Assembly (NCBI GenBank): GCA_000505065.1
Contig: AWSN01000001.1
Location: 132,247-196,246 of the forward strand
DNA: 64,000 nucleotides
Direction of reading: 5' to 3'
Origin: Parcubacteria bacterium RAAC4_OD1_1
Lineage (GTDB): Bacteria > Patescibacteriota > Minisyncoccia > Phycocordibacterales > UBA9973
Positions 36,970 through 41,837 of this stretch are shown piece after piece. The position numbers and the translations under genes were made by a program. How positions within the stretch are numbered: position 1 is the first letter of the stretch; each line of letters opens with the position of its first letter. The notes under the pieces are model-generated. The model was not told where the DNA came from. It made no database searches and saw only the letters and a list, made by a program, of their open reading frames with translations.

Positions 36970-38178
36970 ATGTCTTTTTTGCAAAATAGAAAAATTAAAA
37001 TAGTCTTTATTGTTATCATTTTTATATTGATTGTTTTTTTTGTTTGGTATCATTTTACAAATAGTGATATAGAATATAATAGAAATTTAGTAGATAATAC
37101 AGAAGAAAAAATCCTTAACGATAACATTAAAAGTGAAAATTTAAATGAGAATGAAATTATCTCTGAAGTTGTATTACCAGCTTCTCATATAGAAACTCCA
37201 AATGAAGTCAAGGCCATATATATGTCTTCTTGGGTCGCAAGTGGTTCAAAATATCGTGACCCACTTGTAAAAATGATAGATGAGACAGAGCTTAATGCAG
37301 TGGTAATAGATATTAAAGATTCAACAGGTAAAATTTCATTCTTAATAAATGATGAGAATATAAAAAATCTAGGCGGAGCAGAAAATAGAATTAGAGATAT
37401 AAGAGAATTTATTGAAGAGCTTCACAGAAAAAATATATATGTAATTGGTAGAATTTCTGTCTTTCAAGATCCATATTTAACAAAAGTAAAGCCGGAGTGG
37501 GCTATTAAGAAAAAGAGTGATGGAACTGTTTGGAAAGATAGAAAGGGTTTATCTTTTCTTGATCCAACAAAAAAAGAAGTTATGGACTACACTTTGTCTA
37601 TTGCTCTTCACTCATATGAAATAGGTTTTGATGAAATAAATTTTGATTATATCAGATATCCTTCAGATGGAAATATGAAAGATATAAATTATAATTTAAA
37701 AGAAGGTGAGACAAGAGCGGACAATATAGAGAAATTTTTTAAATATTTAAATGAAGGTATGAAGAAAGAAACAAACATTCCTATTTCGGGAGATTTGTTT
37801 GGTCTTACAACCGAAGCGATGGATGATATGGGTATTGGGCAAGTTTGGGAAAAGGCTATACCTTATTTCGATTATCTTTGCCCTATGGTCTATCCATCTC
37901 ACTATCCAAGTTTGCATATGGGCTATAAAAACCCTTCTTTGTATCCCTATGAAGTCATAAATCAAGCTTTGACTAAAGGAATAGTAAAAACAGAATCTAT
38001 AGGCCAAAATAGAGCTAAGATAAGGCCATGGCTTCAAGATTTTGACCTAGGGACTACTTATACCAAAGATCTTATACGAGCTCAAATGAAGGCCACTTAT
38101 GACAATAATTTAACTTCTTGGATGCTTTGGGATCCTTCAAATAAATATACAAAAGATGCTCTTTTAATAGAAAATTAA
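36970..38178 (+). CDS. Membrane-anchored putative glycoside-hydrolase-like TIM-barrel protein (DUF4015/GHL-type)
   Basis: N-terminal TM; VKAIYMSSW...LNAVVIDIKDSTGKISF pattern typical of DUF4015-like predicted glycosidases. Confidence 0.4.
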   Translation: MSFLQNRKIKIVFIVIIFILIVFFVWYHFTNSDIEYNRNLVDNTEEKILNDNIKSENLNENEIISEVVLPASHIETPNEVKAIYMSSWVASGSKYRDPLVKMIDETELNAVVIDIKDSTGKISFLINDENIKNLGGAENRIRDIREFIEELHRKNIYVIGRISVFQDPYLTKVKPEWAIKKKSDGTVWKDRKGLSFLDPTKKEVMDYTLSIALHSYEIGFDEINFDYIRYPSDGNMKDINYNLKEGETRADNIEKFFKYLNEGMKKETNIPISGDLFGLTTEAMDDMGIGQVWEKAIPYFDYLCPMVYPSHYPSLHMGYKNPSLYPYEVINQALTKGIVKTESIGQNRAKIRPWLQDFDLGTTYTKDLIRAQMKATYDNNLTSWMLWDPSNKYTKDALLIEN

Positions 38179-38199: not shown

Positions 38200-39417
38200 A
38201 TGAGGAAAAATATTAGAACAATAGTTTACATAATAATTTCCATTATTCTCTTGGGGGGAGTGTTTTTTGTCGGAGTTTATATTGGACAAAGTAGAATTCC
38301 TGAAATAGAAAAAGTTTTTTCTATTACCAATAAAATACCAAAAGTAGAAACTACGGTAGACTTTGATCCATTTTGGAAAGCCTGGAATATTTTAAATGAG
38401 AAATCTATTAATGGTAAAGAAGTGACAGATCAAGAAAAAGTTTGGGGGGCGATTGCTGGACTTGCTTCATCTATGGGGGATCCATACACTACATTTTTCC
38501 CCCCAGAAGAAAATAAAGAATTTACAGAAGAGATTAAGGGAACTTTTACAGGGATAGGAGCAGAAATTGGAAAGAAAGATGATATCCTCACTATTGTCGC
38601 CCCACTCAAAGATACTCCTGCGTGGAATGCTGGACTTAAAGCTGGAGATAAAATATTTAAGATAAACAACGAAAGTGCAATGGATATTTCTGTTGATAAG
38701 GCTATTAGTCTTATAAGAGGTGAAAAGGGTACAGAAGTCACTCTTACCATACTTAGAGAAGGAGAGAAGACAACCAGAGATATAAAAATAATTCGTGACA
38801 ATATAAATATCCCTATCATAGATACAGAGATAAAAGATAATAATATTTTTGTGATAAGTTTGTATAGTTTTTCTGAAAATTCTGCAAATTTGTTTAGAGA
38901 TGCTCTAATAGAATTTTCAAAAGCGAAAACAAATAAATTAATTTTAGATTTAAGAGGTAATCCGGGTGGGTACTTAGACTCAGCTGTCGATATGGCTTCT
39001 TGGTTTGTAGATGAAGGTAAAGTTATAGTTAGTGAAAATAGAGAAGGAACTTCAGGTAAAGAAAAATCTTATAGAAGTCACGGTCCTAGAGTTTTTGCTG
39101 ATAATTTGAAAATGATTATACTTGTAGATGGTGGTTCTGCTTCTGCTTCTGAAATCTTAGCTGGGGCCTTAAATGAATATGGTGTCGCTAAATTGGTGGG
39201 GGAAAAGACTTTTGGTAAAGGTTCTGTTCAGGAACTTGTAAAGATTACAGACGAGACTTCACTCAAAGTTACTGTCGCAAATTGGCTTACCCCAAATGGT
39301 AAATCAATCTCCAAAGAAGGTTTGACCCCAGATTATATAGTACCACTTAAATTATCTGATGTAGAAAAAGATATCGATCCACAGATGAATAAAGCAGTCG
39401 AATTATTAAATAAATAA
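38200..39417 (+). CDS. C-terminal processing peptidase, S41 family
   Basis: N-terminal TM, PDZ domain (GLKAGDKIFKINN), catalytic region LDLRGNPGGYLDSAV ... K. Confidence 0.75.
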   Translation: MRKNIRTIVYIIISIILLGGVFFVGVYIGQSRIPEIEKVFSITNKIPKVETTVDFDPFWKAWNILNEKSINGKEVTDQEKVWGAIAGLASSMGDPYTTFFPPEENKEFTEEIKGTFTGIGAEIGKKDDILTIVAPLKDTPAWNAGLKAGDKIFKINNESAMDISVDKAISLIRGEKGTEVTLTILREGEKTTRDIKIIRDNINIPIIDTEIKDNNIFVISLYSFSENSANLFRDALIEFSKAKTNKLILDLRGNPGGYLDSAVDMASWFVDEGKVIVSENREGTSGKEKSYRSHGPRVFADNLKMIILVDGGSASASEILAGALNEYGVAKLVGEKTFGKGSVQELVKITDETSLKVTVANWLTPNGKSISKEGLTPDYIVPLKLSDVEKDIDPQMNKAVELLNK

Positions 39418-39955: not shown

Positions 39956-40000
39956 TCCCCAGATAGTGGTTAAACCACTATCTGGGGGATTGTATTGTTA
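39956..40000 (+). terminator. Rho-independent terminator after rplI (ccccagatagtggtt-a-aaccactatctgggg)
   Basis: 15 bp perfect stem followed by T-rich tract. Confidence 0.6.
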
Positions 40001-40020
40001 TTGTTATATAATGTAATATT

Positions 40021-41754
40021 ATGGATTATCAATCAGAAAACAAGGTGTGTCAGAATTGCAAAAATGACTTTACTGTCGAGCCAGAGGATTTTTTGTTCTA
40101 TAAGAAAATCAAAGTCCCAGCACCGACTTTTTGCCCGGATTGTAGAAGATCCCGAAGATGGTTATGGAGAAATGAAAGAACTTATTATAGAAGAAAATGT
40201 AATGCTCCAGGTCATGAGGAATTTATAATTAGTCTATATTCTCCAGAAGAAAAGAGAAAAATTTATTGTCAGGATTATTGGTGGAGTGATAAATGGGATA
40301 AGATGAATTATGGACAAAAATATGATTTTTCAAAACCCTTTTTTGAGCAGTATAATAATTTATTGCATAATATTCCTATAATTTCTTTATCCAATACACA
40401 ATCAGTAAATAGTGATTATTGTAGCTCTGCGGCTTGGAATAAGGATTGTTATTTATTAAGTGCTGCTGGTTGGAATGAAAATGTATTATATTCTAATCGT
40501 ACTTTTCATAATAAAAATTCTTTTGATTTATATTCAGTAGATAATAGTGAATTTTGTTATGATATTTCTTTTTGTAATAAATGTTATAAAATATTCTTTT
40601 CTTATAATTGTAATGGATGTGTTGAATCATATTTTTTATATAATTGTAGAAATTGTCAAAATTGTTTTGGTTGTGTGAATTTAAGAAATAAACAATATTG
40701 TATTTTAAATGAACAATATACAAAAGAAGAATATGAAAAAAGAATAAAAGAATTAAATTTAAATAATTATTCAAATTTAAAAAATATTAAAGATACTATT
40801 TATAAAAATGTTTATCTTAAAAATATACATAAATTTGCAGAAATAATAAATTGTCAAAATTCGACGGGAGATTATCTACAAAATTCTAATAATTGTAAAG
40901 AATGTTTTGATTTTAGTGGTGATAATAATGAAAACTGTAAATATGTTAATCTGAGTGGTTTTAATGCTAAAGATCTTTATGATACTGGCCCTGGGGCTGG
41001 CTGGGGATCATCTTTACTTTATGAAGGAGTTGATATAAACGATTCGGCAAATATCTTGAGTACTGTAGTTTGTTATAATTCAAATAATTGTTTTTACTGT
41101 TTTAATATTCAAAATTCGAGTAATTTATTTGGTTGTTATGGTTTACATTCCAAACAATACTGCATCCTAAACCACCAATACACCAAAGAACAATACGAAG
41201 AATTAGTCCCTAAAATAATAAAGCATATGAACGATATGCCATATATAGATAGTAAGAGTAGAGTATACAAATACGGAGAATTCTTCCCATCCGAACTCTC
41301 TCCCTTTGCCTATAATGAAACCATAGCTCAAGAATACTATCCTTTAACTAAAGAAGAAGCTTTAGAGCAAGGATATAAATGGAAAGATAAAGAAGAAAGA
41401 AATTACAATATAGATATTAAAAATAACGATATCCCAGATGATATTAATAACACAGATGAATCTATAGTAGGTAAAGTCATAGAATGCTCACATAAAGACT
41501 GTAATCATCAATGCACTGAAGCATTTAAGATAATCCCCGAAGAATACCAATTCTACCGCCGTATAAACCTTCCTCTCCCAAGACTCTGCCCTAACTGTAG
41601 GCACTACGAAAGACTCTCTCAAAGAAACCCTCTTAAACTCTGGCATAGATCCTGTATGAAAGAAGGATGCACCAATACTTTCGAGACATCATATGCACCA
41701 GATAGACCTGAAATAATTTATTGTGAGAAATGCTATCAGCAGGAGGTGTATTAA
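40021..41754 (+). CDS. Cysteine-rich repeat protein with duplicated N- and C-terminal zinc-ribbon modules; function unknown
   Basis: N-module CQNCK..F..EPEDFLFYKKIKVPAPTFCPDCRRSRR and C-module CTEAFKIIPEEYQFYRRINLPLPRLCPNCRHYER are homologous; internal repeats ...KQYCILNxQYTKExYE x2; about 50 Cys. Confidence 0.6.
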   Translation: MDYQSENKVCQNCKNDFTVEPEDFLFYKKIKVPAPTFCPDCRRSRRWLWRNERTYYRRKCNAPGHEEFIISLYSPEEKRKIYCQDYWWSDKWDKMNYGQKYDFSKPFFEQYNNLLHNIPIISLSNTQSVNSDYCSSAAWNKDCYLLSAAGWNENVLYSNRTFHNKNSFDLYSVDNSEFCYDISFCNKCYKIFFSYNCNGCVESYFLYNCRNCQNCFGCVNLRNKQYCILNEQYTKEEYEKRIKELNLNNYSNLKNIKDTIYKNVYLKNIHKFAEIINCQNSTGDYLQNSNNCKECFDFSGDNNENCKYVNLSGFNAKDLYDTGPGAGWGSSLLYEGVDINDSANILSTVVCYNSNNCFYCFNIQNSSNLFGCYGLHSKQYCILNHQYTKEQYEELVPKIIKHMNDMPYIDSKSRVYKYGEFFPSELSPFAYNETIAQEYYPLTKEEALEQGYKWKDKEERNYNIDIKNNDIPDDINNTDESIVGKVIECSHKDCNHQCTEAFKIIPEEYQFYRRINLPLPRLCPNCRHYERLSQRNPLKLWHRSCMKEGCTNTFETSYAPDRPEIIYCEKCYQQEVY

Positions 41755-41794
41755 TAATTACTAATTACAAATTAATAATTTGAAATAAAATTAA

Positions 41795-41823
41795 AAAAAC
41801 CTAGCACAGCTAGGTTTTTTTAA
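41795..41823. terminator. Bidirectional terminator (aaacctagc-aca-gctaggttt + T-run)
   Basis: 9 bp stem, A-run and T-run on either side. Confidence 0.6.
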
Positions 41824-41837
41824 TTAGTAATCATTAA

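Follow-up and report, generated by a model that had tools for sequence, protein, structure and literature searches.

A Parcubacteria protein family with predicted zinc-finger ends and β-solenoid core, and its linkage to orphan VirD4-like ATPases

What does a cysteine-rich protein of no recognised family do in the small genome of a parcubacterium? This question is raised by a 64,000-nucleotide stretch of DNA from Parcubacteria bacterium RAAC4_OD1_1 (contig AWSN01000001.1, positions 132,247 to 196,246), referred to here as the window. At 40021–41754 on the + strand, the window holds a complete open reading frame (ORF), a solo copy with an ATG start that encodes 577 aa, among them 36 Cys, 66 Asn and 50 Tyr. 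This ORF and all the peptides quoted from it in a preliminary description of the sequence are found in the translation. The ATG start is backed by the alignment of homologs, most of which open with M-x(2-4)-SE(T/N)K-x-CQNC. We call this protein and its family X. We suggest that X is a cytoplasmic, zinc-stabilised scaffold that serves as an adaptor or a substrate of orphan ATPases that resemble the coupling proteins of type IV secretion systems (T4SS), and we give this reading a probability of about 0.4. We rate X as new both as a protein family and as a gene system; its building blocks are known fold types, and its function is read from gene context.

The reading starts from the neighbouring genes. 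We compared 81 loci from species-representative genomes, which had been selected with two peptide patterns from the C-terminus and for their similarity to the query. Clustering of the neighbouring ORFs gave one dominant neighbour, a soluble ATPase of ~500-700 aa with P-loop, T4SS-DNA_transf, DUF87, TrwB_AAD_bind and TraG-D_C domains, which makes it a VirD4/TraD-like member of the FtsK-HerA superfamily. It is present in 37 of the 81 loci in 62 copies, 35 of which directly adjoin X. The genes recur in a common order. A PaaX-like gene on the opposite strand is followed by dnaK, a long form of the ATPase, n copies of X, a short form of the ATPase, dnaJ, a further X and a gene for a six-transmembrane (six-TM) protein, and then by an arginase-like gene and cysS, both on the opposite strand; grpE and X lie just upstream. 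In a second recurrent block, secD-secF is followed by genes for a sigma-r4/HARE-HTH protein, the ATPase, a small TM protein, the ATPase again and then X. The same linkage is found in the reciprocal test, which set out from the short ATPase and took four of its homologs that lie on long contigs. Each of these four loci has dnaK, the long ATPase with a zf_Tbcl_2 finger and, further on, the short ATPase and dnaJ, together with two X genes; the smallest gap, seen in one locus, is 1 nt from the ATPase stop to the X start. A 428-aa protein encoded upstream in locus L085 was considered as an ATPase and rejected, as it gave no tblastn match.

The long and short ATPases are ~45% identical to each other, and the best 120 clusters of the short form are 84-94% identical. 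The long form carries a finger that matches TIGR04272/zf_Tbcl_2 above cutoff (40.8 bits vs 36). In hhalign comparisons, this finger aligns with the second of two fingers predicted at each end of X (probability 95.6% for both; C finger 2, E=1.3e-8; N finger 2, E=1.1e-8), and we take the finger of the long ATPase to be homologous to finger 2 of X. In the Candidate Phyla Radiation (CPR), 5,713 VirD4-like type IV coupling proteins (T4CPs) have been reported from 2,918 genomes, of which 148 are near virB4, and they were described as 'possibly exapted' (10.1101/2025.01.22.634366). This orphan population appears to include the ATPases linked to X.

Some further features of these loci were observed. 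The long ATPase has a Pro/Lys-rich low-complexity tail that ends in ...(R/K)EVPEDxLRKILE (L004 1314-3458; L016, L032, L037, L039, L052, L060), and this conserved C-terminal motif looks like a docking peptide. A protein of ~196 aa with roughly six TM segments and no Pfam match is encoded after dnaJ(-X) in at least 10 loci (L004 9797-10375 and its equivalents), and a ~170-aa single-TM protein lies between the two ATPase genes in the secDF-linked block. Both are possible membrane partners of the ATPases. CutA1 ('divalent ion tolerance') directly adjoins X in 7 of the 81 loci (L005, L011, L020, L038, L053, L076 and L082), and a class II ribonucleotide reductase adjoins X in 5 loci.

X itself is a very large family. 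With clustering at 90% identity, a word-indexed search matched at least 8,000 clusters; the top 120 are full-length, 52-76% identical and all labelled 'hypothetical'. A hidden Markov model (HMM) search of 1.84 billion representatives (50% identity clusters) returned 4,952, 3,675 and 2,174 matches at E<=1e-3, 1e-10 and 1e-30, respectively. The best 150 HMM clusters all match in a single stretch of ~545-610 aa or are truncated fragments, and no fusions were seen among them; thus, the architecture is uniform. Among species representatives in GTDB, X occurs at no fewer than 584 places. The named sources of the best-scoring matches are Nomura-, Lipton-, Staskawicz-, Sung-, Giovannoni-, Jorgensen- and Kaiserbacteria, Paceibacterota and Minisyncoccia, and the two lineages that were looked up are both in the Parcubacteria group of the NCBI Patescibacteria group. 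Among the best-scoring matches, the family is seen only in Patescibacteria and every named lineage belongs to the Parcubacteria group, so that it appears to be Parcubacteria-specific. A wider host range, as implied by record titles naming Burkholderiales, Gammaproteobacteria and Bacteroidales, was rejected because these records have a GC content of 29-35% and Parcubacteria-typical synteny. Loci L022, L062 and L078, and many loci from third-party-annotation metagenome-assembled genomes titled 'uncultured Candidatus Saccharibacteria', are probably misbinned or mislabelled.

The preliminary description did not recognise the family and proposed a profile search as a check. Its view held up: Pfam, NCBIfam and PDB give neither a full-length nor a core match. 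In the window copy, residues ~100-485 match nothing in Pfam, NCBIfam or PDB, and the PHROG and PADLOC models gave noise only. By tblastn, X was not found in 50,697 phage and 72,556 plasmid records, which speaks against the virion-like role that had been offered as one candidate. Our literature searches turned up no paper that describes the family or its link with the ATPases.

Most X genes stand in arrays. The 81 loci hold 198 family ORFs, 183 of them full-length; 47 loci are multi-copy, and in 46 of these 47 all copies are on the same strand. The largest array has 10 copies in 21.7 kb (L005). Another has 9 copies that fill the whole 17 kb examined (L011), and three have 7 copies each (L026, L052 and L075). 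Adjacent copies have a median identity of 41%. For 96% of the copies, the closest relative is in another species (median 58%) rather than in their own array (median 45%). Since copies are closer to their kin across species than within the array, the paralogs are ancient. This, together with their conservation between species, is the reason for rejecting recent amplification or arrays of the antigenic-variation type. Matches of 2.0-2.5 kb were at one point considered to contain inteins or insertions, and this was rejected because they are neighbouring paralog copies joined by the search tool. Between species, X is ~50% identical, compared with 57% for CysS and 34% for GrpE; judged by these values, X diverges at a housekeeping-like rather than an effector-like pace.

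The predicted parts of the window copy are as follows.

40033–40170, + strand: N finger 1, zf_Tbcl-like treble clef, basic (residues 5-50; putative ligands C10, C13, C38, C41)
40171–40314, + strand: N finger 2, decayed CxxC-x17-CxxC-like finger (residues 51-98; only C60, H65 and C83 left), then a WWSDxWD motif
40315–40377, + strand: conserved helix/cap YDFSKPFFxQF...VP (residues 99-119)
40378–40716, + strand: predicted β-solenoid 1 (residues 120-232), 12-residue coils with a Cys/Ser ladder every third residue, ending in KQYCILNEQY
40717–40824, + strand: helical hairpin between the solenoids (residues 233-268), starting with the TKEEYE cap helix; helices 235-245 and 250-265 by DSSP in the model
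40825–41178, + strand: predicted β-solenoid 2 (residues 269-386), homologous to solenoid 1, ladder Cys mostly Ser, C372 and C381 conserved, ending in KQYCILNHQY
41179–41475, + strand: cap helix and strongly conserved acidic subdomain (residues 387-485), motif YGEFFPxELSPFxYNETxAQEY
41476–41625, + strand: C finger 1, homolog of N finger 1, basic (residues 486-535; C489/C494/C498, C523, C526)
41626–41751, + strand: C finger 2, CxxC-x17-CxxC-like with a weak LIM-like pattern (residues 536-577; C545, C550-x17-C568, C571)

The two ends of the protein are clearly related, as had been proposed. The N module (residues 10-60) and the C module (residues 498-572) match each other by BLASTP with E=2e-15. 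The proposal of terminal zinc modules stands with one change, in that each module appears to consist of two fingers and not of a single zinc ribbon. In profile-profile comparisons of 184 members, finger N1 matches C1 (probability 99.2%, E=6e-20) and finger N2 matches C2 (97.2%, E=4e-11). We suggest that, at each end, a zf_Tbcl-like treble clef is followed by a CxxC-x17-CxxC-like finger. When searched in isolation, the N module matches Pfam zf_Tbcl (PF13451) over residues 8-46 with E=6e-4 and 20.2 bits, under the 24-bit cutoff, and aligns to profile positions 5-44 of 48. Among 62 close homologs, 21 match zf_Tbcl at E<=1 (best 9e-5); with the full-length window protein, Pfam gave no zf_Tbcl match. 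The putative site of N finger 1 (C10, C13, C38 and C41) is complete in 96% of the 184 paralogs, with its CxxC pairs ~24 residues apart, and the ligand positions of C finger 1 are each 89-98% conserved. N finger 2 has a complete CxxC...CxxC in 76 of the 184 paralogs (41%) but not in the window copy, whereas C finger 2 is complete in 97%, and the spacing is 17 residues in 169 of 180. The family median charges of fingers N1 and C1 are +2 and +5. Domains of the CxxC-x17-CxxC type bind zinc, as found by inductively coupled plasma mass spectrometry on Methanosarcina mazei small proteins (PMC12704099). A match to the second half of LIM (PF00412; 15.6 bits, E=0.02) missed the cutoff of 22.9 bits, and LIM proteins in PDB gave E=0.025-0.8. 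The LIM matches, like those to antibodies, were dismissed as compositional or pattern noise.

Between the ends, the core is internally duplicated, in agreement with the preliminary description. Half A (~120-270) matches half B (~270-420) by BLASTP with E=5e-15, and the internal repeats that had been noted are NLRNKQYCILNEQYTKEEYE at residues 220-239 and GLHSKQYCILNHQYTKEQYE at residues 374-393. These repeats correspond to a capping motif, KxYCI(L/F)NxQY(T/S)KEEY, which ends each solenoid and runs into a helix. The 'repeated Cys core' is thus duplicated and Cys-rich, as claimed, but is better described as two predicted β-solenoids of 12-residue coils in which Cys is mostly exchangeable with Ser. 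The sequence period of the core is 12. Cys/Ser residues autocorrelate at a lag of 3 and at multiples of 3, while both hydrophobic residues and Asn/Asp recur every 12 residues; residues 183-230 stack as 12-residue rows. An AlphaFold2 model from 147 diverse family sequences (mean predicted local distance difference test score, pLDDT, 95.9; predicted template modelling score, pTM, 0.92) has short strands every 6 residues across residues 120-232 and 269-386. A first model, built with 62 close homologs, had a core pLDDT of 60-75 and no PDB match, and was set aside. Foldseek searches of PDB with the later model returned left-handed β-helix proteins only (LpxD, GlmU, LpxA, γ-carbonic anhydrase and YdcK; best E=3.5e-4), with superpositions at TM-scores <=0.2 and root-mean-square deviations (rmsd) >10 Å. 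The BFVD search gave only zinc-ribbon matches of ~45 residues. The model supports membership of the core in the β-solenoid fold class rather than among the hexapeptide transferases.

Across the family, Ser can stand in for most of the ladder Cys, and therefore we regard these Cys as small interior residues and not as obligatory metal ligands. One coil of solenoid 1, C209-C212-C215-C218, is complete in 66% of the paralogs and could be a lumenal metal site. Conservation is lowest in residues 120-200 and 240-360, the solenoid segments. The acidic subdomain (residues 387-485) has a family median charge of -6 and no match in any library searched. The homologous parts of the window copy follow one another in a mirror-like order, namely zinc module, solenoid, solenoid and zinc module, which a simple tandem duplication would not give.

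In the reading that we favour, X proteins would be soluble, held rigid by zinc, and partners of the orphan VirD4-like ATPases, either as specificity adaptors or as handled substrates. Their zinc-finger ends, which stay constant, would bind a shared docking site or partner; the long ATPase has a homologous CxxC-x17-CxxC finger. Specificity would differ from paralog to paralog through the variable faces of the solenoids. Through co-transcription with Hsp70, DnaJ and GrpE, the process would be tied to folding or unfolding with the help of chaperones. The window copy would be a dispersed member that stands alone between terminators of its own; elsewhere, in many genomes, the protein most similar to it (51-59% identity) is encoded in or beside a dnaK-ATPase-X-ATPase-dnaJ cluster. 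A bolder proposal, which we consider rather doubtful, is that the X arrays, the two soluble ATPases, the small membrane proteins and Hsp70 form a Parcubacteria-wide machine, a coupling-protein pathway independent of relaxase and virB4 that handles or translocates X, possibly towards a host. Such a machine would account for the thousands of orphan CPR T4CP genes.

Several points weigh against the partnership between X and the ATPases. The linkage may mirror co-regulation only. The loci were picked for their likeness to the query and the neighbouring ORFs were called by a simple longest-ORF rule, and thus the context frequencies given above are estimates. In 34 of the 81 loci, there is no ATPase within 10 kb of X, and the 64-kb window holds neither the ATPase nor dnaK, dnaJ or grpE. 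The closest orthologs of the window copy (67-73% identity) are solo genes too and lie among other housekeeping genes, beside those for tRNA synthetases and ribosomal proteins, in the orders argS, X, ileS and mnmA, X, thrS. Zinc binding by X is read from the sequence. For the isolated modules, hmmscan matches to TIGR04272 are insignificant (E=1.9 and 5.7, cutoff 36 bits), so the kinship of finger 2 to this domain comes from profile-profile comparison only.

Other explanations have to be weighed against this one. X could be an autonomous DNA or RNA binder that grips nucleic acid with basic fingers at both ends, and its linkage to the ATPases would then come from a common substrate or regulation. 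The charges of fingers N1 and C1 fit, treble-clef and CxxC-x17-CxxC fingers often bind nucleic acid, ATPases of the VirD4/TraD/CedD type translocate DNA, and a role in transcription is the subject of speculation in the M. mazei paper (PMC12704099). Solo copies among translation genes point the same way, although such neighbours are weak evidence in CPR genomes, which are dense in these genes. However, X matches no characterised DNA- or RNA-binding family, and the proposal leaves the solenoids and the acidic subdomain unexplained. We consider it unlikely. Export is quite unlikely in our judgement. Here, X would be cargo, as effectors or surface proteins sent out by a VirD4-like pathway, with the Cys ladder disulfide-bonded outside the cell as in narrow antifreeze-type β-helices. 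A solenoid with a Cys ladder is typical of extracellular proteins, diverged paralog arrays adjoin the coupling-protein-like ATPases, and the second context lies beside secD/secF and small membrane proteins; VirB2 pilin arrays are also known from CPR genomes (10.1101/2025.01.22.634366). However, neither a signal peptide nor a TM segment was found in 183 members: within their first 40 residues, no hydrophobic stretch is longer than 7, and the median position of the first Cys in finger 1 is 7. This argues against a classical extracellular protein, another role that had been put forward. In addition, X has invariant Cys4 fingers at either terminus, a trait typical of intracellular proteins, and its extreme C-terminus is a predicted folded finger and not a flexible secretion signal. 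Housekeeping-like divergence and uniform length are unlike effectors, and the reported CPR T4CPs are seldom near virB4 (148 of 5,713).

The location of X inside grpE/dnaK/dnaJ raises the possibility of a stress, redox or metal protein of the Hsp70 network, which might act as a zinc-dependent holdase, as an escort of Hsp70 (like Hsp33, the DnaJ zinc domain or Hep1) or as a metal buffer. A Cys-rich protein with several predicted metal sites and with CutA1 next to it in 7 loci would suit such a role. However, X has no similarity to Hsp33, DnaJ-CR or zf-DNL, the core Cys are mostly replaceable by Ser, and this role would not readily explain as many as 10 conserved paralogs. The association with the ATPases is also stronger than that with the chaperones (37 vs 14 loci). 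For these reasons, we regard this role as improbable. Finally, all significant Foldseek matches in PDB are to LpxD, GlmU, LpxA and γ-carbonic anhydrase (E down to 3.5e-4), which would make X a left-handed β-helix enzyme of the hexapeptide acyltransferase or γ-carbonic anhydrase type. This is hardly credible given the poor superpositions (TM-score <=0.2, rmsd >10 Å), the absence of a Hexapep match in Pfam even at E<=10, the repeat period of 12 instead of 18, and the lack of an evident catalytic His/Asp set among the universally conserved residues.

The window copy is flanked by two hairpins.

39956–39988, + strand: terminator-like hairpin after rplI, 15-bp stem with 8 GC pairs, which parts X from the upstream operon
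41789–41825, no strand assigned: bidirectional terminator-like hairpin flanked by T-runs on either side, located where X and rpmA converge

Because of these hairpins, after rplI on one side and towards rpmA on the other, X is a stand-alone unit in the window. The preliminary description of a stand-alone gene with terminators therefore suits this copy but not the family, which is mostly in tandem arrays. A TATAAT box lies 8 nt 5' of the ATG (40007-40020), and there is no Shine-Dalgarno-like purine run from the terminator hairpin to the start of X. The leader of the mRNA may be absent or very short. The genes 5' of rplI encode a DUF4015 protein and a PDZ/S41 C-terminal processing peptidase (36970-38178 and 38200-39417). 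The surroundings of X in the window are ordinary housekeeping genes, and pilus, T4SS and defence genes were not seen near it.

How does X compare with known systems? Its first finger resembles zf_Tbcl (PF13451) in having two CxxC pairs and the F-x-I...(D/E)xxFY...P..CxxCR pattern. It differs in that the match is sub-threshold and the finger occurs twice, inside a 577-aa multidomain protein; zf_Tbcl is itself functionally uncharacterised. The second finger shares with the CxxC-x17-CxxC domain (TIGR04272/PF23477) the 17-residue spacing before the final CxxC and a common ...P...R..(V/I)YCxxC pattern, but the first pair in the window copy is Cx4C and the hmmscan match is insignificant. Left-handed β-helix proteins, the sole fold matches of X in PDB, likewise have short stacked strands every 6 residues, whereas X has coils of 12 residues and not 18, no hexapeptide signature and no evidence of a trimeric active site. 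The narrow β-helix of the beetle antifreeze protein TmAFP has 12-residue coils, TCTxSxxCxxAx, and is like the predicted coils of X in its inward Cys/Ser/Ala at every third position. X differs from it in that it is predicted to be cytoplasmic and its solenoids are flanked by zinc fingers; it has neither a Thr ice-binding face nor detectable homology to TmAFP, and nothing points to disulfides. Thus, the predicted fold of X is unusual, with two solenoids of 12-residue coils, a Cys/Ser ladder and four terminal predicted zinc fingers.

The closest parallel to the gene system is with the T4CPs VirD4, TraD and DotL and their adaptors or substrates. Zinc-binding partners of T4CPs have a precedent in Legionella DotN. 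The likeness to these systems lies in an ATPase gene beside arrays of diverged paralogs, and paralog arrays are also seen as VirB2 pilin arrays in CPR T4SS loci (10.1101/2025.01.22.634366). However, the ATPases linked to X are without an N-terminal TM domain, are encoded in a dnaK-dnaJ operon and not near virB4, and are 84-94% conserved between species; among known adaptors, relaxases and effectors, there is none that X resembles. Parcubacteria genomes are ~1 Mb or less, and some of them give at least 17 kb to X under housekeeping-like constraint. So much DNA in tiny genomes, under such constraint, suggests a central function. Through its linkage to the ATPases, X offers the first concrete candidates for partners of the more than 5,000 orphan homologs of coupling proteins reported from the CPR.

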